This document shows positions 23-15,261 of a DNA stretch of 16,496 nt, one piece after another. Position numbers and translations under genes: made by a program. How positions within the stretch are numbered: the stretch's first letter is position 1; each line of letters starts with the position of its first letter. The notes beneath the pieces are model-generated. The model did no database searches. It was given only the letters and a program-made list of their open reading frames with translations, and was not told the origin of the DNA. Source of the stretch: a bacterium (lineage in GTDB: Bacteria > UBA10199 > 2-02-FULL-44-16 > DYJF01); NCBI GenBank assembly GCA_041739675.1, contig JBGSNL010000086.1, positions 1-16,496 on the forward strand, in the 5' to 3' direction.

Positions 23-2110
23 ATGTTATCTGGCGCCAGAACCGAACTGCCGTCACTTCGTTATTATAATCTCCATTCATGGCATCGAGCGCAGGGTGTT
101 TCTCGCGTGAGCCCTGTTTCTTCTGACAGTTCATATGAACTGGTGAGCCGGCAGCTGTCTGTTTGGGGCGTCACAGGTTCCCGCGCGCAGAGGCCGTTTC
201 TTTACAGTGACGGTAAATCGGGAGGCGGACAGGTTGTGGATCTCGCTCGGGCAGCACGGATCAGGAAGGCAAACTTTTTTTTATCTCATGCAGAAACTAA
301 AATCGCAGAGCTGAAGTCCGTCTTGGCGAAGGCAGTAGCATCTCTGAGTAAGGCGGATGAGCAAAGAACAGCGCAAACTGGCATCAATGGAGCATTTTCC
401 CCAGAGTGGGAGGATGTCCGTTGGGCGAACGGTATGATTCTTGGCGCGCACCAACAGCTCTTCGACATCGGAAAGAACGCTGAACAATTCGCCGACATTT
501 TGGGTCCGCAACGAGTGACCGAGATAAAGGAAAAAGTCAGGGCGGCGAGAACGGAGACTGACCCTCAGATCTTCGGCGCTGTGGAAGGTACGGAGAAGGT
601 TGCGGCGCTCAGAAATCTGGGCGTGCGATTAAGTTTGCAGGACCGACTTGACGAAAGCGAGCTGCGAAGGAGATTCGAGCTCTCAGGCGTTGAAGGAGAT
701 TCCGCATATAAAGAGTTCAGAGTGAGATCCAGGCGCGCCGCCGATAGAGCGTTTGGAGGTCTATACCTATATATCGCCACGCTGTGGCAGTTTTCACGGG
801 TCGCGCCCGGTACGCTGACCGTTGCGGAGATTTATGACGCGTATGAAAGATTCCTGATCAGGGACCGAGAATGGGTCAGCAGGACTGTTGTCCAGCTGCG
901 GGCGAGCGAGGCGGGGCAAGGCCCGAAAGTCGTGCACTATTATGATTACAACCGCGAGCCGCAGAGCATGGCCGACGCATCTTCAGACGGCGCATATGAA
1001 TTGATGAGCCTGCAGCCGTCGGTGTGGGATGTGACGGGCTCCGGAAGCAGCCGTCCGTTTTACCGCACGACACTATCGACTGATGAAGGACTTTTTGCCG
1101 CGATAAAAAGGCAGATCGGCATTATCGAAATCGAGGCAGGCACTGCCATCAGGAGCGCTATGTCGATCGGCGTGGACAATCCTTTGCGAAAATTGATGGC
1201 GGCGACAGTGATGATGGAGCTTTTATCTGCACTGGAACCCATTCCAGAGAGGGCACTCGGAGAGTTGGATATTTATAGCGCGATAAGGATTCAAATACTC
1301 GTGGAGGGGGTGCTCAACCGGGCGGCCAATGTCCTCGATGTCGATCATTTCGGTAAAGTGGTCAAGACCTTTAGACTCGGCCTGCTGCATGCTTTGACGA
1401 CTGCTCAGGGGGACTTGATCGAAGAATTGGCGCGCCGGCGGAGCTTAAATGCCGACATATTTTTGACCAGTGCAAGAGAGGAATTTGATGAGCTTGTGAA
1501 CGAATTCGGCAGAGCGGCCTTGTCTCTCTCGAACCCTCCTTACGAATACAATGGCCAAGATTTGGAAGTCGCCGCCTTGTTCATTTTGAGTGTGCAGCGG
1601 TTTGCAGCTTTGGAGGCGGAAAGTGTGCCGGATATTCGTGAATCATATGTTGGAGTAGTGAGACAATTGTTTGAAGAGATACGTGAAGGGGTTTTTGACC
1701 GCGCGGGTGCAGGGCAGGGCCCCACGGAAGTTAAATTTCACTATTTTGAAAACCCGATGTATGCACACAGGGCTGTCGCCGATGATTCTGTCGGTGTGGA
1801 TGCAGCCAGAGCAGGAATCGACACGGTCGGTCTCGTAGGTGGACCGTTGTCTTCTACGAGCGCGCCGTTTTACCGCAGCGCTCCCTCGACTGTTGCAGGT
1901 CTCGTGGAGGAAACAGGCGAAACCTCCGGCGGCGCGTTTGAGGGCGGTGCGGGGCAGCTTGCGGGTGCCGGTGGAACTGGAGCCTCGCATCAGAGAGTCG
2001 CCCGGCAGCACGTCGCCGGCGCCCGTGTCATGACGCAAACAGGAGCACCGGTGAGAGCGCCGGTACCGGCCGCGGCTGTTTTCAGACCCACGATGATCCG
2101 TGTGCGGTAA
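23..2110 (+). CDS. Modular hypothetical protein, paralog 1 (putative secreted multi-domain effector)
   Basis: 695-aa ORF with SD-like AAGGAG upstream. N-terminus MLSGARTE.PS and C-terminal ETGETSGGAFE...SHQRVA.Q.VAGA tail shared with the ORFs at 2813 and 5725. Three copies of the internal conserved motif (62-214, 911-1066, 1709-1879). The effector role is inferred. Confidence 0.85.
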   Translation: MLSGARTELPSLRYYNLHSWHRAQGVSRVSPVSSDSSYELVSRQLSVWGVTGSRAQRPFLYSDGKSGGGQVVDLARAARIRKANFFLSHAETKIAELKSVLAKAVASLSKADEQRTAQTGINGAFSPEWEDVRWANGMILGAHQQLFDIGKNAEQFADILGPQRVTEIKEKVRAARTETDPQIFGAVEGTEKVAALRNLGVRLSLQDRLDESELRRRFELSGVEGDSAYKEFRVRSRRAADRAFGGLYLYIATLWQFSRVAPGTLTVAEIYDAYERFLIRDREWVSRTVVQLRASEAGQGPKVVHYYDYNREPQSMADASSDGAYELMSLQPSVWDVTGSGSSRPFYRTTLSTDEGLFAAIKRQIGIIEIEAGTAIRSAMSIGVDNPLRKLMAATVMMELLSALEPIPERALGELDIYSAIRIQILVEGVLNRAANVLDVDHFGKVVKTFRLGLLHALTTAQGDLIEELARRRSLNADIFLTSAREEFDELVNEFGRAALSLSNPPYEYNGQDLEVAALFILSVQRFAALEAESVPDIRESYVGVVRQLFEEIREGVFDRAGAGQGPTEVKFHYFENPMYAHRAVADDSVGVDAARAGIDTVGLVGGPLSSTSAPFYRSAPSTVAGLVEETGETSGGAFEGGAGQLAGAGGTGASHQRVARQHVAGARVMTQTGAPVRAPVPAAAVFRPTMIRVR

Positions 2111-2134
2111 ATTGGATCGAAATAATCAAGTGAT

Positions 2135-2171
2135 CAGAGACCGGATTCCCCCGAATCCGGTCTCTGTTTTT
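2135..2171 (+). terminator. Rho-independent terminator (family-conserved hairpin, copy 1)
   Basis: Perfect 14-bp stem CAGAGACCGGATTC / GAATCCGGTCTCTG with CCCC loop followed by TTTTT, 24 nt after the stop of ORF 23-2110. Confidence 0.85.
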
Positions 2172-2183
2172 CCAAGTTTTTAC

Positions 2184-2212
2184 TTGTTTTTTCATTATAA
2201 ATAATGTAAATT
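2184..2212 (+). promoter_or_regulatory. Putative sigma70 promoter of the TA operon with palindromic operator
   Basis: TTGTTT(2184-2189)-N17-TAAATT(2207-2212). Inverted repeat CATTAT-AA-ATAATG (2193-2206) lies in the spacer. The ATG is 6 nt after the -10 with no SD, suggesting a leaderless mRNA. Confidence 0.55.
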
Positions 2213-2218
2213 ATAGTT

Positions 2219-2443
2219 ATGAAAAAGACCGCTGTCATATCAACCGTCATCGATTCCGCAGTCAAGGAGGCCGCCACGCAGTTTTGCAAGCGCCGCGGCC
2301 TGAAGCTCCGCTATTTTGTGGAGCAGGCGTTATTGGAGCAGCTTGAGGACGAGATCGATCTTGAGGCCTACAATGCGAGGCGGACGGAGGAAACCGTTCC
2401 TCTTGAGGATATTCTCGCCGCCAAGAAAAAACGAGCCGCATAA
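2219..2443 (+). CDS. Type II antitoxin (RelB/ribbon-helix-helix-like)
   Basis: 74 aa with an N-terminal strand-helix-helix pattern and acidic C-terminus (LEDEIDLEAY...TVPLEDIL). Its stop overlaps the start of the downstream RelE-like toxin (TAATG). Confidence 0.8.
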   Translation: MKKTAVISTVIDSAVKEAATQFCKRRGLKLRYFVEQALLEQLEDEIDLEAYNARRTEETVPLEDILAAKKKRAA

Positions 2444-2715
2444 TGCCCGTATATCGTGTTGAATTCACGAAAAGCGCAAAAAAGGAGTTTGAGGATCTTT
2501 CCTCAGAGGTCCAACTGAAGGTCCTGGAGGCGTTGGGTCTTTTGTCGCAAAATCCCTTCTCTGAATTGCTGCAGATCAAGAAGCTGAAGGGCGCACAGTC
2601 TCTTTACCGCATCAGAATCGGGGATTACCGGCTCGTCTATGAAGTCCGTGGCAATGTTCTCGTTATAGTCGTCATCAAAATCGGCCACCGAAAAGACGTT
2701 TATCGGCGCTTCTGA
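2443..2715 (+). CDS. relE: Type II toxin, RelE/ParE family (mRNA interferase)
   Basis: 90 aa with typical RelE motifs YRVEFTKSAKKEF, KKLKG, YRIRIGDYRLVY and IGHRKDVYR. Confidence 0.92.
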   Translation: MPVYRVEFTKSAKKEFEDLSSEVQLKVLEALGLLSQNPFSELLQIKKLKGAQSLYRIRIGDYRLVYEVRGNVLVIVVIKIGHRKDVYRRF

Positions 2716-2743
2716 ACCCCAAAGAATCTCGCAAAAAATCCAC

Positions 2744-2770
2744 GCAACTTCTTTGACAACCCGCCGACAA
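2744..2770 (+). promoter_or_regulatory. Putative sigma28 (FliA/WhiG)-type promoter of paralog 2
   Basis: GCAA(2744-2747)-N15-GCCGACAA(2763-2770), compared with the sigma28 consensus TAAA-N15-GCCGATAA. The same architecture is conserved upstream of paralog 3. A TTGACA also lies in the spacer (2753-2758). Confidence 0.6.
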
Positions 2771-2812
2771 AGCGGCTAAGGATAAGGCACGGGGGAAGAA
2801 AGGGATTATCTT

Positions 2813-5554
2813 ATGCTGTCGGGAGCAAGAACCGAACGTCCATCCTTACATCATTACGATCTTGATGCATGGAGACAACCGCAGGGTCTGCCGGAAATTA
2901 GCCCCATTTCTTCGGACAGCGCATATGAATTGATGAGCCGCCGGCCGTCGGTGTGGGATGTCACAGGTTCGGGTGCGCAGCGTCCATTTCTTTATAGCGA
3001 CGGTATTCCCGGAAATGATACTCGCGTGAAAGCCGCGGTGGATGGTGCCAGGCGGGATTTGGAGAATACTTCTCGGCGCGAAGTCAGAACGGTCTATGAA
3101 GCCAGTGTAGAGGAAACGCATGGACGAGTTGTGTCCGCTGCTGCGCGAGGAGACGTTTCTAGCGTTCTGCCAGCAGAGGTTGAAAAACTGGGCGCGATGT
3201 TGTTGCCTGCAAGGGCCACATTGCGCGCTCATGTAACTGCGGCCACAATGAGCCCCGATCCTGCTCTGGCCAAAGATATCGGGATCGCGCAAAGAGATGT
3301 CGGCTATCTGAGAGCGGCACTTGCATGGCTTGTTGCCTTCGCGCAGGCGTATTTGCCGGCCGACAAAGCGGCAGAGATCAAGAGGCTTGTCGATGCGGCT
3401 ATCTCTGGAGGAGCAACGGAGCTTCGTCCCGAGATAGAAAGACAAGGCGGTGGCAGTGTTCAAAGTCCTATTGGCGGCAATCATTATTATGATCCTTTCC
3501 GCGCGCTTCGGAGCATGTCCGAAGCATCTTCAGACGGAACGCTTGAGGCGATACGCGGCATGCACTCGGTGTGGGATGCGATCGGTTCTGTCGGTCAGCG
3601 TCCGTTTTTATACAGCGACGGTTCATCGGCCGATGGCAGGGACGAAGCGAGTTGGGAAGAATTTCAGAGGATGCGACAATTGTATCAACATATGATGGAA
3701 AAGTTTGGAATTTCATTGGGAGCACTCAGTGCTGACGAATTGGTGCTCAATTTTGCTCTTATTCGAAATGAGTTGAACATCGGTCGCGAATATGGACTGT
3801 TCAACCGTGTGCTGGAGGGTTTCATTAATGAAACTGACGAGACGCCGGCGGATTTTGTAGCTGCATTCAAAGATTACGCGAGACAATTCCTTTTGCGGAA
3901 AGTTGCGGGCGCTTCTGGCAGCGGTGGGCAAGGATCGGGTCCAGCGAGCGCTCATTTCTTTGAAGATCCAAACTCCGCATATATGACCTTGGCTGATGAC
4001 TATTCCGGACTGACTGCGGTCCGGGCCGGAATCGACACCGTAGGATTCCTCGGTGGCGCTTCATCTCCGACGAGCGCCCCATTTTACCGCAGCAGTCCGG
4101 CGCCCGACGGCCTGATCAATCGCGCGCGTGCGTTTCTGAGCGCAAATATCGTACGCTTTCCGCGAAACGTCTTTCCGGCGAGCATTCAGGCGGAAGCGAC
4201 CATAAGGATAGACGCATGGCTCGCTTCTTTTCACAGAGCGGACTATCAGATACAAACCTTCGGTGGAACCGGCAACACAGAGGACGCGTTCCAAATCGTC
4301 ACTGCAATTTCGGAGATCGAGAGACGGTTGCCGACTGCGGGCCTGACCGAAGTGTATGAGATGTTGCAATATCTGGAGCATCATAAGTTTGAAGGAAGAC
4401 GCGTCGATTTGGATTATGAAGTGGGCCCTACCGCTTCACGAGCCGATGTCACAGGGGCCCTTCGCGTTCTGAATATCGCTATTGCGACAAGGGTGCTGGA
4501 AATTATGAGGGACGGAGAACTAATAAGAAGCGTCGGAGATACGCTGCCTCCTCCGATAAGAATGGTTCTCTACGAAGGGCAAAGCCGCGTAGCAACAGGC
4601 ACAACGGATAGGCTTCTCTACCTGTTTCAGGCGCTGACCGGCTCCCGTGAGGGCATCTATTACGTTTTGAAGAATGCGAGCCGCGGTAAACCGGTGTCCA
4701 CAGTCGATTTACTCATCATGACTCTGCAAACGTATCTCGACGAACTGATTGACGAGAGCGAGCATGTCTGGAGCGGTGCTGCTTCGGCGCAGCAGTTTTC
4801 AGCCGGCGTCGATGCCGAGATTCAAAGATTGCAGACGGTTTTGGCGCGGGAAGTGGAGCGGAAATCCGCTATCCCTATGGAGGAACCTCCCCAAAGTGCG
4901 GAAGAGCTTATCAGGCCCAGACTCAGAATGCTGCCGATTTATCTTGGGCGCGTTTCCCGTGAACAGAGAAGAATCGATTCGGTGCGTGCGGAGCTTGAAG
5001 GCATTGCCGCGGCAACTGAAGGATATGCGGATGCTTTAGGTCAAGCGCGCGTGGCCGAAATCAAGGGGCTTGTTTCCAGGGTGATTGGGGAAACGATTCC
5101 GGCTTCATCTTCAAGTCGTGTGGACAAGGGCGGCGGAGGAAATCCCAACGGTGCCGTTCCCGGCCCGTCAATCGGTCGTTTCTTTGAGCATCCCGCGTCT
5201 GCACATATGACGATGATGGATGATCCCACAAGTATAGATGCGTTCAGAGCGGGAATGGAGAGAAGTAATTTCTTCTTTGGCGGCGCGTTCAGATCCATCA
5301 GCCGTCCATTTTACCGCAGCGGTCCGTCAACAGTCGCCGGGATCGTGGAAGACACAGGCGAGACCTCCGGCGGCGCGTTTGAGGGCAGTGCGGGGCAGCT
5401 TGCGAGTTCCGGTGGGGCTGGAGCATCGCACCAGAGAGTCGCCCGGCAGCAAGTCGCCGGCGCACGCATAATGGTGCAAACAAGGTTACATGCCAGCTTG
5501 CCGGTAGTAACCCCTGCCATGGCCCCCATCAGGAGCACAATAGGTAGGCTGTAA
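2813..5554 (+). CDS. Modular hypothetical protein, paralog 2 (putative secreted multi-domain effector)
   Basis: 913-aa ORF with the family N-terminus and C-terminal tail. Four copies of the conserved motif (2849-3004, 3446-3622, 3926-4093, 5129-5320) separate three variable domains. Confidence 0.85.
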   Translation: MLSGARTERPSLHHYDLDAWRQPQGLPEISPISSDSAYELMSRRPSVWDVTGSGAQRPFLYSDGIPGNDTRVKAAVDGARRDLENTSRREVRTVYEASVEETHGRVVSAAARGDVSSVLPAEVEKLGAMLLPARATLRAHVTAATMSPDPALAKDIGIAQRDVGYLRAALAWLVAFAQAYLPADKAAEIKRLVDAAISGGATELRPEIERQGGGSVQSPIGGNHYYDPFRALRSMSEASSDGTLEAIRGMHSVWDAIGSVGQRPFLYSDGSSADGRDEASWEEFQRMRQLYQHMMEKFGISLGALSADELVLNFALIRNELNIGREYGLFNRVLEGFINETDETPADFVAAFKDYARQFLLRKVAGASGSGGQGSGPASAHFFEDPNSAYMTLADDYSGLTAVRAGIDTVGFLGGASSPTSAPFYRSSPAPDGLINRARAFLSANIVRFPRNVFPASIQAEATIRIDAWLASFHRADYQIQTFGGTGNTEDAFQIVTAISEIERRLPTAGLTEVYEMLQYLEHHKFEGRRVDLDYEVGPTASRADVTGALRVLNIAIATRVLEIMRDGELIRSVGDTLPPPIRMVLYEGQSRVATGTTDRLLYLFQALTGSREGIYYVLKNASRGKPVSTVDLLIMTLQTYLDELIDESEHVWSGAASAQQFSAGVDAEIQRLQTVLAREVERKSAIPMEEPPQSAEELIRPRLRMLPIYLGRVSREQRRIDSVRAELEGIAAATEGYADALGQARVAEIKGLVSRVIGETIPASSSSRVDKGGGGNPNGAVPGPSIGRFFEHPASAHMTMMDDPTSIDAFRAGMERSNFFFGGAFRSISRPFYRSGPSTVAGIVEDTGETSGGAFEGSAGQLASSGGAGASHQRVARQQVAGARIMVQTRLHASLPVVTPAMAPIRSTIGRL

Positions 5555-5588
5555 TTGAGATTAAGCTAGAGACAAATAACAAGTAACG

Positions 5589-5642
5589 AGAGACCGGATT
5601 GGAGTTTTTCCCCAATCCGGCCTCTTTTTTCCGGTCTCTTTT
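5589..5642 (+). terminator. Rho-independent terminator (family-conserved hairpin, copy 2, with duplicated right arm)
   Basis: AGAGACCGGATTGG (5589-5602) pairs with CCAATCCGGCCTCT (5612-5625, one mismatch) followed by a T-run. A second right arm TCCGGTCTCTTTT lies at 5630-5642. Confidence 0.75.
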
Positions 5643-5657
5643 GTACCAAAAAAACAC

Positions 5658-5684
5658 GCAACCTTTTTGACAGGGTGCCGACAA
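5658..5684 (+). promoter_or_regulatory. Putative sigma28 (FliA/WhiG)-type promoter of paralog 3
   Basis: GCAA(5658-5661)-N15-GCCGACAA(5677-5684), with the same spacing and elements as 2744-2770. Confidence 0.6.
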
Positions 5685-5724
5685 AGAAGGTAAAGGGACA
5701 ACTGGGGTAAGAAAGGGGAACAAT

Positions 5725-8700
5725 ATGTTATCGGGAGCAAGAACCGAGCGTCCGTCTCGTCATTATTTTGATATAGATGCCTGGAGACAATCGCAGGGTT
5801 TTCCTCAAGTGAGCCCTGTTTCTCCAAGCGGCGTGGACACATTTGAAAGGGGTATAGATGATGCTGGTCTCCTGGCCCGCCCGGATGGGCGCGGGACTGC
5901 TTACCGCACTGCCCCTGCGGTCGATCCGTCGAGCCGCACTTATTGGGTCGGCGATTGGAAGGTATATGTCCGTATCCTTCAACGGGAACTTGGAACACAA
6001 TTTGATGATCGAACCATTGCCATTTTTGAGGAACAATTTCCCTATGTCGGCAGTTTTGTAACGACCTATCTGAGTCTTTCGCCCAACGAAAACAGCCCGC
6101 ATCGTTGGATGATCGGAGGCGCGAGGCGGGCCGATCCCATTTCAGATTTTCGCACATATATCGAACTGCGTTCTCAGGGGGACCCTAAATTTGAAAAGCT
6201 CGCGCGTGTGTTGAAGAAAATCCAGGAGCAGGCCGATAGGGTGGAAGTGAATCTAATCAGACTGTCCGAGTATCAAGGTTATCTTAGCCGTGGCGATGAT
6301 AAACGTGATTTCTATCAGGGGAAAATTCGAGAAATACGAAGCGAAATTGCCGACGCCAAAGAAGCCATTCGAGAAAACGTTCGGGGAGCGGGGGAAGTTC
6401 TTAGGTTTCCGAAAGGCCACTTGGCGGAAGTGAGAAGATTTGCGCGGGAGGCGGTCCACGCCGCCGAATCTCAGGCGCAACAGACAATAGAAAGGGAGCG
6501 TATTTTTGCTGAGCTGGAGCGCCAGCGTTTCGGCACCAGAGCGGTCTCGGCGCCTTTGGGTGCGGGCAGTCGGCGAACATCACGCTCAAGAGGTGTGCGT
6601 TATTATGACGAGAATATGTTCAGAATGGCGCAAGGTTTGCCTGAAGTGAGCCTTGCTTCCGAGGGTATCGACAGTGTCGGTCTCCTTGCCGGTCCCGACG
6701 GCGTTGGCAGCTTTGCCCCGAACTATCTTAGCGGCCGTGCGTCGCGCAGCGGCGGCTCTGCCGGTTCGTCTGACGAAGCTGCCGTGCGAAGCGTCTGGTC
6801 AGATATGGACAAGATCATGTTCAAAGAGTTTCGACAAGACATACGGCGTGGAGATATCACTACAAGTCAGCAATTGTCCGAGCGCATCCATAGAGGAGGT
6901 CGCTTCGGAGGTCTCTACAACTCGGGGTTAGATTATGTGAGGGCAGCGGCCGAACTTCTTTTGTGGAGCAAAGATAAGATCGAATTTGATCTGGAGACCT
7001 ATGTCAAAGACCTGATGGATCTGAATATGTGGAGAAGGCGGGTCGTTTGGGAGCCGGGCGCGCATTTTGAATCTGATCATTATTCGCAACGCGGCGACGT
7101 CACAGGAGCTATATTAAAGGCCTTGAGCGTGGTTGAAAGGACGTTGTATGGCGAAGGCGCAGCGCGCGGTTTTCAGGAGGGATGGGAAGTCGATTATACG
7201 ATGTTTGCACTGGAGCCTGTCGATCTATGGGAAGGCGCCGATGCCGGGCATGATCCCGTTCTCCTTTCCAGACGCTTAGTGGAGGAGGTCTATAAGCTTT
7301 ACTCAGAAGGTTCTTCCTATCAGTCGGAACCATTGCAGCGGATCAATGATGCGATAATGTTTGCAAGTTTGGGTCACGGTGCTCAATTAAGAAAGGGTAC
7401 TGCATATCCGTACATAATCCATCCTATTGGCGTGGCCACGATAATCGCCGAGAACGGTGGCGACATCGATCAGATAATTGCCGGGGTCTTCCATGATCTG
7501 CCTGAAGATACGAAGGTCACTGTCGCAGAGATAAGGGCCGAGTTCGGCGACCGCGTAGCAAACGCCCTTGAGGCCGTCGTCACGCCGGGTAAATCGGAAG
7601 GGAAAAGCAAGCTGACGTGGGAGCAGAGCAAACAGCTCACCATCGACCACATCGCCGAATTGCCGCTGGATGCTCTCATTGTCGAGATGGCCGATAAACT
7701 TGATAACATGCGTGCTATAAGGGCCGACTTTGAAGCGCTGGGTGACGGGCTTTGGACGAGGTTCAAAAGAGGAAAAGAGCAGCAGGGATGGTATTACGGA
7801 TCAATAGCGGCCGCGTTTTTGAAGAGGACCGATACGGAAGCGACAAGAAAGATAGCCCGGGAATTTGCAGGGCATGTAAGGGCCGTTTTTGGCCAAAGCA
7901 GCGTCTCCGGAAGTGAAGCGTCGAGATCGGGCGGTCGCCCGTCGGGCCCCGGAAGCGCGCGTTATTATGAATTTCCGTCATGGTTCGCCGCAGACCCGGC
8001 CGAAGCGTCTTCAGACAGCACGCCGGAGTTCAGATTCGCGAGAACCTTTTTTGTAGGCGGCCCCGACGGACGGGAATTTCATTATAGGGACCGAAGCCAC
8101 TTGATAGGCCGCTCGCCCGATGCGCGGGTGAGACTTGTCGAAGATATATCGGCTAAGATCAGAAGTAAGGAAGGGTGGATTGAAGCTATGGCCGCGGACT
8201 GGCCATCACGAGTGGCAGCGTTGCAAGCGGCGAGTCCCCTTTTCGTCGATAGTGAGCTGGACAGAGTTCATGGTGCGCTTGAAGCAATAATGGACGATAT
8301 TGAAAGTCTGGTTAGAGATGCCGAAAAAGGGCGTTTGTTAAAGAGTCAGATGAGAGAAATCATAGCGCTTGCCCAGTCAGTTATCGCAAAAGCGATGGCC
8401 TGGCCCAATTTACCGAACACAGCTCAAGCACAATCCGCGCCGCCGGCGCCTGCTCCGCAGACTACACCCACGCCTGCAGCGCCTCCAGACTCGACACCTC
8501 CGGCCCCCGAAACGCAGTCAAGCGAGCCGACTGTTACAGGACTTGTGTCGGAGGAAGAAACAGGTGAAACATCGGGCGGCGCATTTGAGACCGGTGCAGA
8601 ACATTTGGCTGGAGCTTCTCAAGCTGGAAGCTCGCATCAGAGAGTCGCTCAACGGCAAGTTGCAGGCGCAGCGAGGGTGAGGCAGCCCGCGACAGGAGTG

Positions 8701-8754
8701 AGATCGGCGGTGGCGGCCCCTGCCGTTGTCAGAACCCCGGTCCTTGCGCCGTAA
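5725..8754 (+). CDS. Modular protein, paralog 3, containing a MESH1/SpoT-like HD (p)ppGpp-hydrolase domain
   Basis: 1009 aa with the family N-terminus and C-terminal tail and three motif copies (5761-5910, ~6589-6735, 7930-8088). HD_4-type domain at ~7339-7893 (AIMFA..GHGAQLRKGTAYPYIIHP..VA, HDLPED, ADKLDN, WYY). Pro-rich linker before the tail. Confidence 0.88.
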   Translation: MLSGARTERPSRHYFDIDAWRQSQGFPQVSPVSPSGVDTFERGIDDAGLLARPDGRGTAYRTAPAVDPSSRTYWVGDWKVYVRILQRELGTQFDDRTIAIFEEQFPYVGSFVTTYLSLSPNENSPHRWMIGGARRADPISDFRTYIELRSQGDPKFEKLARVLKKIQEQADRVEVNLIRLSEYQGYLSRGDDKRDFYQGKIREIRSEIADAKEAIRENVRGAGEVLRFPKGHLAEVRRFAREAVHAAESQAQQTIERERIFAELERQRFGTRAVSAPLGAGSRRTSRSRGVRYYDENMFRMAQGLPEVSLASEGIDSVGLLAGPDGVGSFAPNYLSGRASRSGGSAGSSDEAAVRSVWSDMDKIMFKEFRQDIRRGDITTSQQLSERIHRGGRFGGLYNSGLDYVRAAAELLLWSKDKIEFDLETYVKDLMDLNMWRRRVVWEPGAHFESDHYSQRGDVTGAILKALSVVERTLYGEGAARGFQEGWEVDYTMFALEPVDLWEGADAGHDPVLLSRRLVEEVYKLYSEGSSYQSEPLQRINDAIMFASLGHGAQLRKGTAYPYIIHPIGVATIIAENGGDIDQIIAGVFHDLPEDTKVTVAEIRAEFGDRVANALEAVVTPGKSEGKSKLTWEQSKQLTIDHIAELPLDALIVEMADKLDNMRAIRADFEALGDGLWTRFKRGKEQQGWYYGSIAAAFLKRTDTEATRKIAREFAGHVRAVFGQSSVSGSEASRSGGRPSGPGSARYYEFPSWFAADPAEASSDSTPEFRFARTFFVGGPDGREFHYRDRSHLIGRSPDARVRLVEDISAKIRSKEGWIEAMAADWPSRVAALQAASPLFVDSELDRVHGALEAIMDDIESLVRDAEKGRLLKSQMREIIALAQSVIAKAMAWPNLPNTAQAQSAPPAPAPQTTPTPAAPPDSTPPAPETQSSEPTVTGLVSEEETGETSGGAFETGAEHLAGASQAGSSHQRVAQRQVAGAARVRQPATGVRSAVAAPAVVRTPVLAP

Positions 8755-8780
8755 TTGGATCGAAATAATAAGATGATCAG

Positions 8781-8812
8781 AGACCGGATTCTCCGAATCC
8801 GGTCTTTTTTTT
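8781..8812 (+). terminator. Rho-independent terminator (family-conserved hairpin, copy 3)
   Basis: AGACCGGATTC-TCC-GAATCCGGTCT stem-loop followed by a T-run to 8812. Confidence 0.85.
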
Positions 8813-8882
8813 GCCGGCTGAGTGCCTTTTCTTCTTGCCTTCCCGCCCATGAATAGTGCAAAAGGCCGGTTGGCATATATTT

Positions 8883-10316
8883 ATGGGCGACCCTGTCAAC
8901 AAAACAGAGCCGGGCTGGTTTGGAACGTGGCTCTCTCTTGTGAAAGAATTGTATAGAGAGGACACTCTCCCGTTCGATCTTCCTCCCGAGGATTCATATT
9001 TCACAGCAAATGCGTTTGCAGAACTGATGATGCGCTTCAAGGTGTACGGCGTCTCGAATCCCATGCTCGAAAGCGACGCGCGCAAACTCTGGCAGCGCTC
9101 GCGCGTTGAAAAATTCAACATATCGCAAGATGCAAAGCCGCCCGCAGCCTATTATGAGGTCGAAGGGGCCGATGAAGATGCGAGAACTCTCATCGCCGCC
9201 GCAGCCCCGGACAGGCTCGCGGTTCCTTTTCGCGCATCCGTAGTGGAGGCGATCCGCGCGCTTGAAACGCAGAAAATCGTCATGCTCTTCGATTTTGACC
9301 GGCACGACTCCCACTTCAGGGAATTTGTGGCTCCGGGGCTTGTTTTGTCGAACGGCCGGACCGCTTTGTCGTATCAATATTTCCGTTTCGTTTCCAAATA
9401 TTACGACAATCCTGAAACGGAAAGTCAAAGCGGAATCGGTAAACTTGGCTTCAATCGGCAGGATATCACCTTTGAAGATCTGGAGGGAGTGGACCCGTCG
9501 TCACTTTTCACGCTGAGAAGGGATCTGCAGATTCTGATTCTGGATTTTCTGGATTTCAGGGATTGGATAAAAAAGCAGCAGATCGGATCGCAGAAAAGGG
9601 CGTTCAGGGCCTTCATGGGGGCGCTTGGGAGCGCGTTGAAAAAGCGCGGCGACGCCCGCGTGCTGCTTGTCGCGCAGGGTAACCCGCTCTCCTATCTCAG
9701 AAAGTGGAGCCTTTTGTATCCATATATGAGTGAGCTGGGGATAGATCAGCCATCCTATCCGGCCGTGATGATGAATCCGCAGTTGATGAACGAAGCGCAG
9801 GCGGCTCTCTTTGCGGGCGTGGATATTTCCGATATCGAATTGATCTCGCGCGGCGTTCCATTGCTGCCGAAATTGCTCAGGGCCGTATCGCGAATGAACC
9901 CTGACGGCGGCTCTCGCGATGCGGCGCTGCGTTCGCTTTACGCAGAGTTTCGCACTCACAAAATTCTTGTCGAGTCGAGCGGCGACGTTCCCGCGGGGCC
10001 ATACGAGACTCAGTTGGCGCATGTCGCAAAGGCGTATTCACCGCTTGGAGCGTTCGACCAATATGTGATCCGGCAAGAGGGGCGGCAGTGGAGCGGAGAG
10101 ATGTGGCCGCCCGTTCCTGCCACGGTCACAGGCATTTCCGGAACTGGCGAGGTCTCGGGCGGGAGTGCGGGAGCGGGCGCGCACAGGCCCGTTCGCCGGA
10201 GCCGCGCGATCCGCTCCGGAAACAGGGTGCGTTATTTCGTTCAGGGCGCAAGGAATATGATCTCGCGTCCCGTTGTTGCTACGATAGCTGCGAGAGCCCC
10301 AATCAGGGTTCGTTAA
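8883..10316 (+). CDS. Hypothetical protein with a diverged version of the family C-terminal tail
   Basis: Long ORF. The track starts at GTG 8856; the first ATG at 8883 is preferred but the start is uncertain. C-terminus PATVTGISGTGEVSGG..GAGAHR...VQGARNM...PIRVR resembles the tails of paralogs 1-3 (paralog 1 also ends IRVR). Confidence 0.75.
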   Translation: MGDPVNKTEPGWFGTWLSLVKELYREDTLPFDLPPEDSYFTANAFAELMMRFKVYGVSNPMLESDARKLWQRSRVEKFNISQDAKPPAAYYEVEGADEDARTLIAAAAPDRLAVPFRASVVEAIRALETQKIVMLFDFDRHDSHFREFVAPGLVLSNGRTALSYQYFRFVSKYYDNPETESQSGIGKLGFNRQDITFEDLEGVDPSSLFTLRRDLQILILDFLDFRDWIKKQQIGSQKRAFRAFMGALGSALKKRGDARVLLVAQGNPLSYLRKWSLLYPYMSELGIDQPSYPAVMMNPQLMNEAQAALFAGVDISDIELISRGVPLLPKLLRAVSRMNPDGGSRDAALRSLYAEFRTHKILVESSGDVPAGPYETQLAHVAKAYSPLGAFDQYVIRQEGRQWSGEMWPPVPATVTGISGTGEVSGGSAGAGAHRPVRRSRAIRSGNRVRYFVQGARNMISRPVVATIAARAPIRVR

Positions 10317-10366: not shown

Positions 10367-11434
10367 ATGCCGGAAGAGGGCGGCCAGGAAAAAACCGAGG
10401 AAGCGACACCGAAACGCTTGCGGGACGCGCGCAAGAAAGGGCAGGTGGCGCGCTCCCGCGATCTCAACACAATCGTGATTCTCATCGCCGCATTCGCGCT
10501 GATCATCTTCATGCGCGGCTACATGGGCGAGCAGTTCAAAAATCTTCTCACCTCCCACTTCGACGCCATCTCGCGCCAGGAAATCACAAACGAGCTCATG
10601 TTCATCATGGCGCGCGAGAGCTTCATAAGCTATATCAAGATCGTGGCGCCCTTTTTGGGCGCGATGGCGCTCGTCGCGCTTGCAATCGGATTTTTCCAGA
10701 CCGGCCCCATCTTCTCCGGCGAACCTCTGAAACCCCAGACAAAGCGCTTGAACGCCATCGAAAATTTCAAAAACATGTTCAAGATGACAACCTTCGTGGA
10801 GCTTTTGAAAAACATAGCGAAGATCGTTGTGATCTTCTGGATCGCCTATCTCGTCATTGTGGACAGCCTGCGCGAAGTTGTCTTGACTGTCTCTTCAACC
10901 CCCGAAAAATCGATGCAGGTTGGCTCGCACATAGTGGCGATGTTTCTGGCGAAGGTCTTTGTCGTCTTCATTATAATAGCGTTTATCGATTTCATGGTGC
11001 AGCGCTGGCAGTATAAGAAGCAGCTCAGGATGACAAAAGAAGAGGTGAAGCGCGAATACAAGCAGGACGAGGGCGATCCGCTGATCAAGAGCGCCCGGCG
11101 CCATCTGCACCGAGAGCTCGCGATGAGCGACGTGCGCGAGCAGGTAAAGACCTCCGACGTCGTCGTCACCAACCCAACTGAGCTTGCGGTTGCGATAAAA
11201 TATGACGACAAAGAGATGGTTGCCCCGCAGATCACTGCAAAGGGGCAGCGGCTTTTTGCTGATATGATACGCGAGCTGGCCGATGAATACGGCGTGCCAA
11301 TCGTCCAGAACCCGCCTCTTGCATGGACTCTCATTGAAATGGATGTCGGAGATGAGGTCCCCGAAGAGATCTATGCGGCAGTGGCGGAAATACTTGTCTA
11401 TGTATATCGTTTAAAGGAACAAAAAGCACAATGA
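10367..11434 (+). CDS. sctU: Type III secretion export apparatus switch protein, EscU/YscU/FlhB family
   Basis: 355 aa with EKTEEATPKRLRDARKKGQV, four hydrophobic segments, MTKEEVKREYKQDEGDP and the autocleavage-site region VVTNPTE. By eye it is closer to YscU (RDARKKGQV, KREYKE) than to FlhB, but this assignment needs a phylogeny. Confidence 0.9.
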   Translation: MPEEGGQEKTEEATPKRLRDARKKGQVARSRDLNTIVILIAAFALIIFMRGYMGEQFKNLLTSHFDAISRQEITNELMFIMARESFISYIKIVAPFLGAMALVALAIGFFQTGPIFSGEPLKPQTKRLNAIENFKNMFKMTTFVELLKNIAKIVVIFWIAYLVIVDSLREVVLTVSSTPEKSMQVGSHIVAMFLAKVFVVFIIIAFIDFMVQRWQYKKQLRMTKEEVKREYKQDEGDPLIKSARRHLHRELAMSDVREQVKTSDVVVTNPTELAVAIKYDDKEMVAPQITAKGQRLFADMIRELADEYGVPIVQNPPLAWTLIEMDVGDEVPEEIYAAVAEILVYVYRLKEQKAQ

Positions 11435-11435
11435 C

Positions 11436-11521
11436 GTCATTCTGAGCGGAGCGAAGAATCCCATGGGATCCTTCGCCCGCCAAAGATCGTTGGCGGGCTC
11501 AGGATGACACCTTCGGTGTCA
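11436..11521. repeat. Multi-stem palindromic (REP/RPE-like) element between convergent genes
   Basis: Outer arms GTCATTCTGAGC (11436-11447) / GCTCAGGATGAC (11497-11508). Inner arms GCGAAGAATCCC / GGGATCCTTCGC and GCCCGCCAA / TTGGCGGGC. A further hairpin TGACACC-TTC-GGTGTCA at 11505-11521. Confidence 0.7.
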
Positions 11522-12250
11522 CTTTTCCAGGATCTTTCCTTTCATCGGCACAAACGTCACCGCTGCAAGTCTTTTCGGCCCCTCAAGCTTGCCGTTCTTT
11601 TTTGTGTAGAGCAGAAGTTCCTGAAATTTCTGTTCGCCGCCCAAGGGCAGAACCATTCGTCCGCCTTCCTTCAGCTGTTCGATCAGCGGTTTTGGAATCT
11701 CATCGGGGCTGCACGTGAAGACGATGGCGTCGAAGGGGGCGTGCTCGGCCCAGCCTGCGTACCCGTCGCCGGCTTTGACAATGATATCATTGTATCCCAG
11801 TTTATCAAAACGGGCCTTCGCGGCATGGGCGATTTCGGGGATGATATCGATTGTGTAAACCTCTTCCACCATCTTGGCTATGATTGCTGTCAGATATCCG
11901 CCGCCCGTCCCGACCTCAAAGACGCGGTCGGTCGGTTTGAGCTGCAATGCCTGAACTATGAACGCGTCTTCATACGGACGGTCGAGCGTCTGCTCGAAGC
12001 CGATCGGCACTTCGAGATCGGCATACGCCTTGTCGCGGAAGTGGGGAAGAACGAACTCCTCGCGCGGAACGGCGAGCATCGCATCGATTACGTTTTTGTC
12101 AGTAACTCCGCGCCAGAGGATCTGCTGCTCGACCATGGCCTTGCGCTGGGCGGCGAAGTCGGCCGGTTTGCAAGACGAGATTAGGATTAGGATTGGGATT
12201 AAGATTATGATTAGGACCGGGGGCGGGAGATTGTGCTTGATTTTCTTCAT
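11519..12250 (-). CDS. pcm: Protein-L-isoaspartate O-methyltransferase (Pcm/PIMT) family, with N-terminal lipoprotein-like signal
   Basis: Motifs VPREEFV, AYAD..VPIG, VFEVGTGGGY (SAM motif I), GDGYAGW..APFDAI, QLKEGGRMVLPLG and FVPMKG. N-terminal hydrophobic stretch ends in LISSC. Confidence 0.88.
   Translation of the reverse strand: MKKIKHNLPPPVLIIILIPILILISSCKPADFAAQRKAMVEQQILWRGVTDKNVIDAMLAVPREEFVLPHFRDKAYADLEVPIGFEQTLDRPYEDAFIVQALQLKPTDRVFEVGTGGGYLTAIIAKMVEEVYTIDIIPEIAHAAKARFDKLGYNDIIVKAGDGYAGWAEHAPFDAIVFTCSPDEIPKPLIEQLKEGGRMVLPLGGEQKFQELLLYTKKNGKLEGPKRLAAVTFVPMKGKILEK
12179..12214. repeat. Hexamer tandem repeat (GATTNN x6) encoding the Pcm signal-peptide h-region
   Basis: GATTAG GATTAG GATTGG GATTAA GATTAT GATTAG on the + strand, read as LIIILIPILILI on the - strand. 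Confidence 0.8.
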
Positions 12251-12256
12251 GTATAA

Positions 12257-12286
12257 ATTTTAATGCCGATGGGTCGGGGAAGTCAA
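12257..12286 (-). promoter_or_regulatory. Putative sigma70 promoter of pcm (leaderless)
   Basis: On the - strand TTGACT (12286-12281)-N18-TAAAAT (12262-12257), then 6 nt to the ATG, with no SD. Confidence 0.55.
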
Positions 12287-12322
12287 CGGATTGTAAGAAG
12301 GACCATTTAGGGGAGGTGTGAT

Positions 12323-14056
12323 GTGAGAACCGCGATTGTTTTTTTGGCGGCAGCGCTTGTGGTAGTCATATTGGCCGGGGCGGTGCGCGCGGCCGTGATC
12401 GACAAGGAGAGGAGGCGCCAGCTTCTCGTTGCCGCAGAGCTGGGCAAGTACGAGCATCGTGTTCTGACCTACGACGCCTCATCCCTTTCTGAAAAAGAAA
12501 AATCATTTTTGAAACACATGCTTGAGGCGGCAAAGATTGTTGGGGAGATAAATATGCTTCAGATCAATCCCAAGAATCTCGCCTTCAAAGAAGAGGTTGA
12601 AAAAACGGGAAGCAATGCCGACAAGATGCTTTTTCACCGCAACCAGGGGCCGTGGTGTCTGGAGATCGAAGATTCGTTATGCAACGCTCTCGCAAGCATG
12701 CCGGAAAAGAGAATAGGCTGGGGATTCTGGCCTGCCGGGATGAACGACAAGATGCTGGCCCAGATTGAAAAGATGAAGGACGCAAAAGAGCTTATGAGCC
12801 CTTTCACCTTTGTCGTCAGGGAAGAGGAAAAATTCAAGGCAGTTTCTTTCGCTTCCTCGCCGCTGATAGCCGAAAGAATGAGGGCGCTTGCTTCCCATCT
12901 GCGTGAAGCGGTGAAATTCACGGACGAGCCTTCTCTTGTGAGATTTTTAGAGTCGCGCGCGAAGGCGTTCGAAACGAAATCATCTTTCCCCTATGACGAA
13001 AGTGACTTTGACTGGATAGCTCTAGAGGGGCCGTGGGAGGTGACGGTAGGCCCCTATGAAACCTACAAGGAACCGTTCAAGACAAAGGCGCAGTTTGAAA
13101 TGTACGTCGCGCGCGAGGATCCGAAGGTCGGGGCGGAGCTATCCGCGTATAAAAAACATCTGCAGGAATTTGAAAGACACCTTGCCGATTTCACGGGCAA
13201 AGACATCTACAAGGCGAGAAAACTAGATCCCAGGATTCAGATCAGGGCGGCCCAGCTCATCCACGCGGCTGGCGACGGGAGAAACCCGCATGGTGCTACT
13301 GTTGCCTATCACCTTCCGAACCGGGGAAAATCTGTCGAAACCGGGCTCTACAAGAAAGTGATACTCTTGAACCACATGAGGCTCTTCACGCCGCTGATGC
13401 AGAAGCGCGCAAAGATAGCTCTGGCCGGCGATCAAGCATCTCTTGTCGATGAGTGGGCCGATATAATGAACACAACCTTCCATGAGTTCGCGCACGGTTT
13501 CGGCGCGCATGAAGAGCTTGCAATCGTAGTGGACGGGAAAAAGACGACGGTAGGCGAGGCGCTGGGGACGGCCGAGACTCTGATGGAGGAGCTCAAGGCC
13601 GACGTGGCGAGTCTGTGGTTTATCCATTATCTCGTGAAAACGGGTCTCATGCGACCCGAAGAGGTGAACAAGCGCTACACAACCGCCGTGATGCACCTGT
13701 TCGGGCTTCTTCAATATTCGTTGGGCGGAACCTATCCACAGATGGCGGCAGTGGAGGTCGGCAATATGATGGAGAAGGGCGCGCTCAAGTTCGATTCTGC
13801 AAGCGGCCGGTTCACTATCCATTTTGACCGAATGCCCGCTGCGATAGACGATCTGATGAAGAAGATCGTGACGATTCAAGTGACCGGCGACAAGGATGGT
13901 GCGGAGGCCTTAAGGCAGAGATATGTGAAAAAGATTGCGGCCGACAAGTTCGAGTTCGCGCCGCTCATAAAGGAGCCGCTGGCTAAACTGAAGGCCGCCT
14001 TCGACAAAGCGAAGCTGAAGAGTTTTGCAATCGACTACGAGGTGACGGGACTCTAG
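12323..14056 (+). CDS. Exported Zn-dependent peptidase, M49/DPP III-like (HEXXH variant)
   Basis: GGAGG SD before a GTG start. N-terminal signal peptide (A-V-R-A). Motifs VTVGPYETY, AYHLPN, KKVIL.N, HEFAHGFG (13481-13495) and EELKAD. Confidence 0.8.
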   Translation: MRTAIVFLAAALVVVILAGAVRAAVIDKERRRQLLVAAELGKYEHRVLTYDASSLSEKEKSFLKHMLEAAKIVGEINMLQINPKNLAFKEEVEKTGSNADKMLFHRNQGPWCLEIEDSLCNALASMPEKRIGWGFWPAGMNDKMLAQIEKMKDAKELMSPFTFVVREEEKFKAVSFASSPLIAERMRALASHLREAVKFTDEPSLVRFLESRAKAFETKSSFPYDESDFDWIALEGPWEVTVGPYETYKEPFKTKAQFEMYVAREDPKVGAELSAYKKHLQEFERHLADFTGKDIYKARKLDPRIQIRAAQLIHAAGDGRNPHGATVAYHLPNRGKSVETGLYKKVILLNHMRLFTPLMQKRAKIALAGDQASLVDEWADIMNTTFHEFAHGFGAHEELAIVVDGKKTTVGEALGTAETLMEELKADVASLWFIHYLVKTGLMRPEEVNKRYTTAVMHLFGLLQYSLGGTYPQMAAVEVGNMMEKGALKFDSASGRFTIHFDRMPAAIDDLMKKIVTIQVTGDKDGAEALRQRYVKKIAADKFEFAPLIKEPLAKLKAAFDKAKLKSFAIDYEVTGL

Positions 14057-14058
14057 CG

Positions 14059-14637
14059 TTACCAGTGGTATGCCACGTTGCCCACGAGCGAGAGCGGGAA
14101 CTCTGACGTTCCGTTGTGATCGCCGCCGATCGAATCTATGAAGCCGATCGAGCGGAAGATGGCCGCGAGCCCCAGCGAGAACCGTTCCGAAACGTAGAAG
14201 TCGCAACCTATCCCGGCGTCGGCGCCGATTCCAAAGGCCATCGAACCGTTGTCGGCGGAACCCTCCGTCATGGCGTAGAACCCTATACCCACCAGGCCGT
14301 ATGGATCCCAGCGCGACTCTTTCGAGAAGAGATAAAATTTCAGATCAAACGTGGGGATGCCCATGAGGACTATGCCGTTGTCGCCTTTGCTGGTGCCGGT
14401 TCCGTCTTCGGTCGTCACGACCACGCTGAACTGTGTCGAAAATTGAGGCGACCAGCGGTAATCGAAGTAAACGTAACCGCCGATTCCCGGATCGAGCTCC
14501 GGATCGGAATCTACCACGAAGATGTTGCCGACAGGGCCTATGCCGACGGTGTAGTTGCCGGCCGCGCTTCCGGCATCAGCAATGCGCGCAAAAACGAGCG
14601 CGAAGACCACGGCGGACAGCACAAAATATTTTTTCAC
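14059..14637 (-). CDS. Outer-membrane beta-barrel protein (small 8-stranded OMP-like)
   Basis: Signal peptide, alternating hydrophobic strands (PYGLVGIGFY, GADAGIGCDFY) and terminal aromatic AYHW. GGAGG SD with a GTG start. Confidence 0.75.
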   Translation of the reverse strand: MKKYFVLSAVVFALVFARIADAGSAAGNYTVGIGPVGNIFVVDSDPELDPGIGGYVYFDYRWSPQFSTQFSVVVTTEDGTGTSKGDNGIVLMGIPTFDLKFYLFSKESRWDPYGLVGIGFYAMTEGSADNGSMAFGIGADAGIGCDFYVSERFSLGLAAIFRSIGFIDSIGGDHNGTSEFPLSLVGNVAYHW

Positions 14638-14646
14638 GATTCCTCC

Positions 14647-15258
14647 TTATTTGATCCTCACTCGGCGACCTTTGAGAACGAGCCTTCCGCGGGCACAGAG
14701 GTTGATGGCCTCAGGATAGATTCGATGCTCCTCTTTTAGTATCCTTGCGCTTAGCGTGTCAACCGTGTCGTCTTCGGCAACCTTTACTGCCGCCTGCAAA
14801 ATGATCGGCCCATTATCGGTTTTTTCATCGACAAAGTGAACCGTGCACCCCGAAACTTTCACCCCGTATTCCAGCGCCTGCTTTTGGGCGTCGAGGCCCG
14901 GGAAAGATGGGAGCAGCGCCGGATGTATGTTGATGACGCGGTCCGGAAAGGCCGCGAGAAATTCCTTCCCGACTATTCTCATGTAACCCGCGAGGCACAC
15001 AAGCTCCACGTCATGTTTTTTGAGATCGCGAACAATCGCTTTTTCAAATTCCTCTTTTGTTGGATAATTTTTTCGAAGATGAATCGCCGTCGCCACTCCG
15101 AACTTCTTTGCGCGCTCCAGCGCTTTTGCCGCGGCAACGTCGCTTATGACGATTCTGACGTCGGCATCGATCTTGTCGTTGGCTGAGGCTTCAAGAATCG
15201 CTTGAAGATTCGTGCCCGATCCCGATGCCAAGACCCCCAATTTCAGTTTTTTGCGCAT
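14647..15258 (-). CDS. purN: Phosphoribosylglycinamide formyltransferase
   Basis: Motifs VLASGSGTNLQAI, LAGYMRI, INIHPALLPSFPG, GCTVHFVDE..DNGPII.Q and EHRIYPEAI. Confidence 0.97.
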   Translation of the reverse strand: MRKKLKLGVLASGSGTNLQAILEASANDKIDADVRIVISDVAAAKALERAKKFGVATAIHLRKNYPTKEEFEKAIVRDLKKHDVELVCLAGYMRIVGKEFLAAFPDRVINIHPALLPSFPGLDAQKQALEYGVKVSGCTVHFVDEKTDNGPIILQAAVKVAEDDTVDTLSARILKEEHRIYPEAINLCARGRLVLKGRRVRIK

Positions 15259-15261
15259 TGT

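Follow-up and report, generated by a model that had tools for sequence, protein, structure and literature searches.

How did a row of large genes come to encode proteins that are interrupted again and again by the same short motif, and what might these proteins do? The question is raised by contig JBGSNL010000086.1 of a bacterium of the GTDB lineage UBA10199; 2-02-FULL-44-16; DYJF01 (assembly GCA_041739675.1), whose 16,496 nt are termed the window in the following and which is contig C37 of the source genome G000 (1.91 Mb, 94.6% complete). A first-pass annotation made from the letters alone had described three tandem paralogs of 695, 913 and 1009 aa (p1 to p3) as candidate polymorphic multi-cargo effectors; the three reading frames were borne out by an ORF check (Table 1). 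The motif family is undescribed and lineage-restricted, a probable variant of modular effector systems. We give about an even chance to the reading that its members are lineage-specific, modular, effector-like proteins of a sigma28-controlled attack phase, which are exported probably via a type III apparatus.

The repeated motif and the modules between its copies

All ten motif copies of the first-pass annotation were found in frame where it had placed them, and the number rose to 19 copies in seven proteins once four further paralogs, detected by TBLASTN on contig C36 (a1, 585 aa; a2, 761 aa; a3, 1089 aa; a4, 628 aa), were counted. For this set one regex anchor in p4 was discarded and one leader copy was added by eye. 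The alignment of the 19 copies yielded a motif of 45-50 residues, spacer-[HR]YY[DE]-x10-SSD-x12-WD/GID-x-G-x5-PFY, in which Gly and Pro are near-invariant and Asp and aromatic residues are conserved. Nine copies belong to a subtype S (SVWD) and seven to a subtype G (GID.VG), while three are divergent. The statement that one copy always opens the protein held for the window, but not for two of the four C36 paralogs.

That the motif has no named family was confirmed, as none of the 19 copies matched NCBIfam and no fitting Pfam or PDB family was obtained (Pfam returned only DUF1965 for two copies at E 0.004; the best PDB match had E 0.27). A resemblance to the RHS core was likewise rejected, since at E values up to 10 there was no match of any copy in NCBIfam and none to a Pfam RHS family. 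The profile of the 19 copies, which scores its own members with 25-90 bits (circular by construction), did not find the motif beyond the array among 14,714 six-frame ORFs of G000 (best match E 0.35) or in any of the 92 other genomes of the class. Among 1.84 billion representative proteins it gave 12 matches, namely six paralogs, two foreign proteins that corroborate the motif independently (P0007 and P0008, E 5e-17 and 2e-12) and four low-complexity repeats (P0009-P0012) that were discarded as artefacts. Two matches of P0008 in genome contigs and four in metagenomes (~30% over 97 aa) were taken as coiled-coil noise.

The motif is conserved as protein and not as DNA. Identity between the copies amounts to 52, 52 and 38% at codon positions 1, 2 and 3, and a DNA profile recovered only the 19 coding copies and zero non-coding ones, with a mean folding z of -0.3 and no signal of RNA structure. 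The AlphaFold check proposed in the first-pass annotation supported its suggestion of a disordered linker: in two AF2 models the motifs had pLDDT values of 35-56 versus 66-98 for the cargos, and they made no confident contact to a cargo or to each other. We conclude that the motif is a linker conserved at the protein level and predicted not to fold.

The paralogs had been described as sharing both ends and differing largely in their middles. Both ends are indeed shared, but the C-terminal one also occurs on many proteins outside the family; the variable cargo is shuffled as described, but several cargos are homologous across proteins. The second cargos of p1 and p2, the third cargo of a4 and P0007 represent one domain (cargo C), which always appears in the order S-motif, domain, G-motif; between p2 cargo 2 and a4 cargo 3 the agreement is 59%. 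Thus, a fixed domain order, which the first-pass annotation had named as an argument against its own proposal, exists in part as this invariant sub-order in four proteins. Furthermore, p1 cargo 1 resembles a4 cargo 2 (E 5e-12), and the counterpart of p3 cargo 3 in the array of a relative sits with another N-domain and another tail. DNA tracts 84-92% identical between the paralogs span motifs and tails in a mosaic pattern. These data demonstrate that modules move between proteins and genomes.

The second cargo of p3 is an HD_4 domain (PF13328, E 1.6e-16; 7qoe, E 7e-30), for which small alarmone hydrolases are the closest solved structures. The protein P0016 represents the same cargo as a stand-alone protein (66% identity over the searched region) and opens with the same five-residue start followed by a degenerate motif, the score of which is only 9.3 bits. 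Since this stand-alone gene keeps the leader, the internal motif copies look like fused former leaders, and we infer that the modules may be leader-plus-cargo units that have been fused and swapped by recombination at the motif. Fold searches with cargos yielded generic helical folds only (best Z 6.5 with rmsd 4.2 and 95 aligned, and Z 12.0 with rmsd 2.2 and 98 aligned), Foldseek gave zero matches with the cargo models at E 0.001, and the ESM Atlas held no usable match for p1 or for p2 430-770. One bundle family for all cargos was rejected, as the window cargos reached E 0.15 or worse. Apart from the array, a 1303-aa protein (L017; G000:C25:17613-21521, minus strand) contains a divergent look-alike of the leader motif and four helical repeats that also occur in a1 and P0008, besides a second linker repeat; its C-terminal half is hydrophobic and rich in Gly and Ala. 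Its gene has the promoter described below, and the tail is absent.

The array, its tails and its promoters

The family comprises seven motif proteins and p4, which has the tail only. The reversed end of C36 and the start of C37 form the two halves of the array's intergenic unit, and the joining of both contigs is also backed by synteny with relatives. In the relatives G001 and G002 the PEGA-kinase gene, which flanks the array on C36, directly abuts sctU. Since this gap is empty there, the eight genes appear to have been inserted in G000, and the adjacency of array and sctU is therefore not ancient. We regard the array as a probably recent insertion of a gene row. The type III export gene next door, a clue for the first-pass annotation, loses its value, as it owes its place beside the array to this insertion. 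Another relative, whose flanking genes are ~80% identical, has an array too; it occupies a site where G000 has no insertion, and its shared tail is of a different, acidic kind. The relatives of SctU bear names of Deltaproteobacteria or of metagenome-assembled genomes of Pseudomonadota. In run X1, which may be the source sample, Logan contigs cover motifs 1-2, 4-5 and 10 with zero differences; a joint 2780-980 in these contigs was ruled out as a rearrangement because paralog a1 accounts for it.

All eight array genes end with STV[TA]G..[TG]E[TV]SGG followed by ~55 Arg/Ala/Val/Pro residues. A regex for this tail, applied 55-95 aa from the stop in G000, resulted in 39 matches versus 3.4 expected. 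One of them (C73) was dropped as chance, which left 38 tail proteins, and a profile built from 32 of these gave 40 matches. In all 38 proteins the last 50 residues carry a net charge of +4 to +12, with 0.3% Lys and 15.8% Arg, and a Lys-poor basic rule for these residues applied to 37 of the 38 versus 18 of 1148 other genes. The bodies of the tail proteins are also Lys- and Cys-poor though their GC content is normal (3.1% versus 6.2% Lys), and p1-p3 contain zero Cys. At E 0.01, 27 of 31 scanned tail proteins had no Pfam match, while the rest matched SNF2, GHKL ATPase or were weak. None of 60 relatives was hit by the tail profile at E 0.01, and a threshold of E 10 brought up no credible match in G001-G003; a homolog search returned only tail proteins identical to those of G000 or of their size. 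Diverged tails on three G001 proteins were recognised by eye only, and the acidic tail of the relative was found in none of 93 class genomes. At eight other loci (L008-L014, L016) orphan genes with the tail stand in tandem groups of 2-4; a SNF2 helicase of 1675 aa and a GHKL ATPase protein of 2018 aa are encoded there as well. Two large Lys-poor orphans (G000:C81:533-3724 and C81:8055-11075) share a near-identical C-terminal end of another type.

A sigma28/FliA-like promoter element, GCAAC-N14-GCCGA(T/C)A, precedes six of the seven motif genes; that of p1 falls in the contig gap, and p4 is without element. The genes p1-p3 and those on C36 each have a related hairpin on the 3' side. The element is spacing-specific in G000 (24 sites at one spacing versus 0-7 at others). 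A matrix trained without tail genes matched 73 times in the genome versus 7 times in the reversed genome, and with it sites were present at 6/8 array genes, 10/30 other tail genes and 39/1148 other genes (for the other tail genes, odds ratio 14, p 1e-7). Of 93 class genomes, 81 contain the pattern GCAAC/GCCGATAA, which in the window lies for example at 5658-5684; a genome can hold as many as 43 copies, the control gave 0, and in family f7 the pattern is rare (4/14). The element also lies 5' of the relative's array and of the SNF2 gene in G001. Its -10 box equals the attack-phase consensus CCGATA of Bdellovibrio, where FliA drives the attack phase (PMC3627812). The upstream box has the consensus ACGCAACTTTTT, and the canonical -35 sequence TTAAG of Bdellovibrio was not found. 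A FliA/WhiG gene, cut by the contig end and below the cut-off, is located 3' of sctJ. None of the genes sctU, sctV, sctJ and fliA has the element in front, which is as expected if, by analogy with flagellar hierarchies, the element marks late substrates.

Genes directly behind the promoter are strongly Lys-depleted in G000 (median 3.3% versus 6.5%), and among the loci L107-L143 of G001, G002, G003 and G008 most promoter-led genes in G002 and G003 have 0-2% Lys, including that of a 642-aa protein with zero Lys. A search of the literature, with incomplete coverage and supplements outside it, disclosed nothing on the motif, tail or promoter in this lineage.

Table 1. Features of the array and its surroundings in the window
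Feature	Position	Strand	Remarks
p1, 695 aa	23..2110	+	S-motif, cargo B, S-motif, cargo C, G-motif, tail
Motif copy 1, S-type leader	59..205	+	in-frame core coordinates
Motif copy 2, S-type	935..1063	+	in-frame core coordinates
Motif copy 3, G-type	1739..1873	+	directly 5' of tail; core coordinates
p1 tail	1889..2107	+	STV[TA]GL..TGETSGG, then Arg/Ala/Val/Pro-rich, Lys-poor
Terminator-like hairpin after p1	2135..2166	+	repeated after each paralog
RelB-like antitoxin	2219..2443	+	below curated cut-off
RelE/ParE toxin	2443..2715	+	type II toxin-antitoxin pair inserted within array
Sigma28/FliA-like promoter of p2	2742..2771	+	GCAAC-N14-GCCGA[T/C]A
p2, 913 aa	2813..5554	+	S, cargo, S, cargo C, G, cargo, G, tail
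Motif copy 4, S-type leader	2849..2995	+	core coordinates
Motif copy 5, S-type	3482..3613	+	pLDDT 38-47 in model
Cargo C of p2, four-helix domain	3644..3916	+	block pLDDT 66-90; without specific fold match
Motif copy 6, G-type, internal	3953..4087	+	pLDDT 35-44
Motif copy 7, G-type, before tail	5177..5314	+	core coordinates
p2 tail	5330..5551	+	profile, core coordinates
Hairpin after p2	5589..5625		repeat comparison
Sigma28/FliA-like promoter of p3	5656..5685	+	same pattern as p2
p3, 1009 aa	5725..8754	+	its three motif copies are more diverged
Motif copy 8, divergent leader	5761..5907	+	profile and core coordinates
Motif copy 9	6598..6729	+	profile and core coordinates
HD_4 domain, small-alarmone-hydrolase/Mesh1-like (p3 cargo 2)	7357..7725	+	His, HD, Asp motifs aligned
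Motif copy 10, divergent	7960..8088	+	pLDDT 40-56
Three-helix bundle cargo of p3	8116..8400	+	pLDDT 95-98; 47% identity to module of relative's array
p3 tail	8530..8751	+	profile, core coordinates
Terminator-like hairpin after p3	8779..8807	+	repeat comparison
p4, orphan protein	8856..10316	+	tail at 10122-10313; motif absent
sctU/flhB-family export switch gene	10367..11434	+	conserved flank, outside the insertion

The gaps of 50-170 nt within the array contain no ORF of at least 30 aa, the RelBE pair between p1 and p2 being the sole exception (the C36-C37 gap lies outside view). The array of the relative likewise hosts an unrelated gene of 232 aa (L085:8502-9197), which is nucleotidyltransferase-like by eye and has no NCBIfam match. 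The remainder of the window (11519-16296) harbors ordinary neighbors, namely genes for a PCMT methyltransferase, an M49-like peptidase and an outer-membrane beta-barrel, besides purN/purM-like genes assigned by eye.

Candidate export route and alternative explanations

We also searched the genome for secretion systems. SctV was above its cut-off, and SctU and SctJ reached 356 versus 358 bits and 135 versus 162 bits, respectively. No match in G000 was obtained for flagellin or for VirB4 (PF03135), VirD4 (PF02534) and VipB, with controls detected in each case; needle and CesT chaperone searches also gave 0 matches, their controls being likewise undetected. GspD/E/F-like genes of a type II or pilus system reside on C80. 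For Tad/Kil there was no separate TadB/C match, only two T2SSF matches in one gene, and a type I secretion locus was not present within the window, a genome-wide search for one not having been made. Apart from sctV (C31) and sctU (C37), the sctJ gene lies on C5 in a compact cluster (L106; G000:C5:16261-20291) of small unknown genes, together with fliA and a SycD-like TPR gene that is conserved in 19/22 genomes of the order. A complex prediction for the motif and this TPR protein gave a score of 0.01, to which we attach no weight either way. The proposed comparison of motif and type III secretion across genomes was uninformative, as SctV occurs in 91/93 class genomes and the motif in 1/93. The absence of a Sec signal was upheld by a hydropathy scan, in which the paralogs revealed no hydrophobic N-terminus.

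The idea of a polymorphic multi-cargo effector therefore stands in part: the cargo is modular and shuffled, and the context is effector-like because of the non-flagellar type III apparatus, the sigma28-like promoters and the lack of a Sec signal, but the type III argument drawn from sctU adjacency falls. The tail and the promoter, both missed by the first-pass annotation, are better links to export than this adjacency. According to the reading we favor, each gene would be a unit of its own with promoter, Met-Leu-Ser-Gly-Ala leader, modules of motif plus helical or enzymatic cargo, tail and terminator. The motif may have originated as the N-terminal leader of single-cargo genes, so that internal copies would be fusion scars at which homologous recombination could swap modules. 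Selection might retain the motifs because they carry short linear signals (YY[DE], SSD, WD/GID, PFY) that an export or targeting factor recognises, and the tail would be a second, genome-wide address. The most likely exporter would be the flagellin-less type III apparatus, and the cargos might work inside a prey or host cell, where the HD domain, for instance, could degrade (p)ppGpp or a similar nucleotide. A bolder version, in which the Arg-rich, Lys-poor tail is the signal of a needleless type III system, the leader motif chains former effectors, and tail plus promoter reveal a class-wide effector set, we consider possible but rather unlikely. If it were true, tail and promoter would list ~40 effectors here, in a class in which SctV (91/93) and promoter (81/93) are common and tail sequences turn over from lineage to lineage.

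Several observations weigh against the favored reading. Known type III signals lie at the N-terminus, and signals at the C-terminus are characteristic of type IV or type I secretion. Tail sequence is not constant across relatives: it is acidic in L084-L087, rich in Met, Pro and Gly in P0016 and P0007, and diverged in G001. Such variation would be unusual if a conserved machine read the tail as its signal. Housekeeping-like and signal-peptide proteins also belong to the promoter regulon, so that type III export does not follow from the promoter. With 13-14 rows the AF2 alignments had little depth, and the low motif pLDDT may stem from this. A recognisable activity is seen in only one of the window's ten cargo segments, and a unifying helical-repeat family was upheld only for a1, P0008, the C25 protein and a4.

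Alternatively, the motif might be a cleavage site at which an auto- or trans-acting protease frees each cargo. This would resemble MARTX toxins, which are multi-cargo chains with a cysteine protease domain, Gly-rich/RTX repeat arms and a dedicated type I secretion locus, or the RHS core with its RHS-associated autoprotease and paired DPxG motifs. Exposed disordered linkers flanking every domain, the near-invariant Gly and Pro with conserved Asp and aromatics, and the free cargo protein in a relative agree with processing. We nevertheless judge it unlikely, as a protease domain is absent from the seven paralogs and their neighbors and an RHS-core match is lacking; the MARTX-like logic suggested in the first-pass annotation thus found no protease in proteins or locus. 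Moreover, cleavage would release little at the first copy, which lies 12 residues into the protein, or at the last, which immediately precedes the tail, and the stand-alone cargo gene retains a motif-like leader. A similarly low probability is assigned to the motif being the effector part itself, a multivalent linear motif bound or phosphorylated by a prey or host protein, with the bundles mainly as spacers. The paired Tyr/Phe, the WD and the PFY within disordered stretches, the 1-4 copies per protein and several generic three-/four-helix bundles without specific match would fit, but ~31 other tail proteins have no motif, the two subtypes hold positional preferences, and a target is not known.

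It appears improbable that the proteins are exported through a type II/type IV pilus system, type I secretion or vesicles, in which case the basic tail would be the signal and type III would play no part. Basic C-terminal signals occur in type IV substrates (PMC6509941), GspD/E/F-like genes are there on C80, and the sctU adjacency is incidental; the paralogs, however, have no Sec signal, VirB4, VirD4 and VipB were not found in this nearly complete genome, and fliA adjoins sctJ. Still less credible are cytoplasmic scaffolds or regulators of the sigma28 phase; here the tail would tag the proteins for degradation or localisation, and the motif would be a scar of recombination that is nearly neutral. 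The SNF2 helicase and GHKL ATPase among the tail proteins, an HD hydrolase that could work at home and the unstructured, basic-hydrophobic tail are in line with this, but the strong depletion of Lys and Cys, the fast lineage-specific turnover with insertion at sites empty in relatives, and the constraint on the motif at the protein level speak against it. Finally, an in-frame mobile DNA or RNA element of ~150 nt, akin to the Rickettsia-type palindromic elements, which are structured DNA repeats in unrelated genes and intergenic regions, agrees in size and in-frame insertion but is largely refuted by the DNA profile, by the third codon positions, which vary most, and by the folding z.

Comparison with known systems

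Assignment to the Bep effectors, the polymorphic toxins, MARTX or RHS failed on the defining tests for each of these systems. MARTX toxins share the multi-cargo chains, but neither a cysteine protease nor an RTX arm was matched here in Pfam or NCBIfam. Like polymorphic toxin systems (PMC3482391), the array shows variable cargo exchanged by recombination and stand-alone cassettes, the latter seen in P0016 and the module of L085. Unlike in those systems, where a variable C-terminal toxin follows a constant N-terminal body, the variable parts are internal and the C-terminus is constant; an adjacent immunity gene or known toxin domain was not found outside the C36-C37 gap. The Bep effectors of Bartonella combine repeated BID domains and a C-terminal tail of positive charge (PMC6509941). 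With them the array has tandem paralogs, domain shuffling by duplication, helical bundles and a basic C-terminal tail in common. It differs in the lack of VirB4/VirD4, in the conserved core TVTGL..ETGETSGG of the tail and in the repeat, which is a four-helix bundle with a hook in Beps and a predicted disordered linker here; the BID domain had no Pfam match, and two cargos were modelled as generic bundles, which, to judge from the fold matches, might still be of the BID type.

Type III effectors that evolve by terminal reassortment have been described (PMC7555288), and the portable promoter-plus-leader joined to new cargo is reminiscent of this process. Further likenesses to type III effectors are the missing Sec signal, the low pLDDT of the motif and the type III export genes in the genome, whereas the internal retention of the leader up to four times and the common C-terminal tail set the array apart. 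The needleless system T3SS* of Myxococcus, the effectors of which are only postulated in the paper on it (PMC12075869), resembles the apparatus of G000 in its flagellin-less SctV/SctU/SctJ and in a deltaproteobacteria-like lineage; in G000 the genes are scattered, a separate Tad/Kil TadB/C match is absent, and the candidate substrates are lineage-unique. The FliA regulon of Bdellovibrio shares the -10 sequence CCGATA, and FliA controls non-flagellar, uncharacterised genes there (PMC3627812). It differs by its upstream box TTAAG instead of GCAACTTTT, and flagellin was not found in G000.

The motif is restricted to a few related organisms and its function is putative. For T3SS*, with its merely postulated effectors (PMC12075869), the array supplies concrete candidates and offers three handles, namely the repeated leader/linker, the genome-wide C-terminal tail and the class-wide sigma28-like promoter. 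Module shuffling can be seen under way as well, with a (p)ppGpp-hydrolase-like cargo that occurs fused in one protein and free in another.

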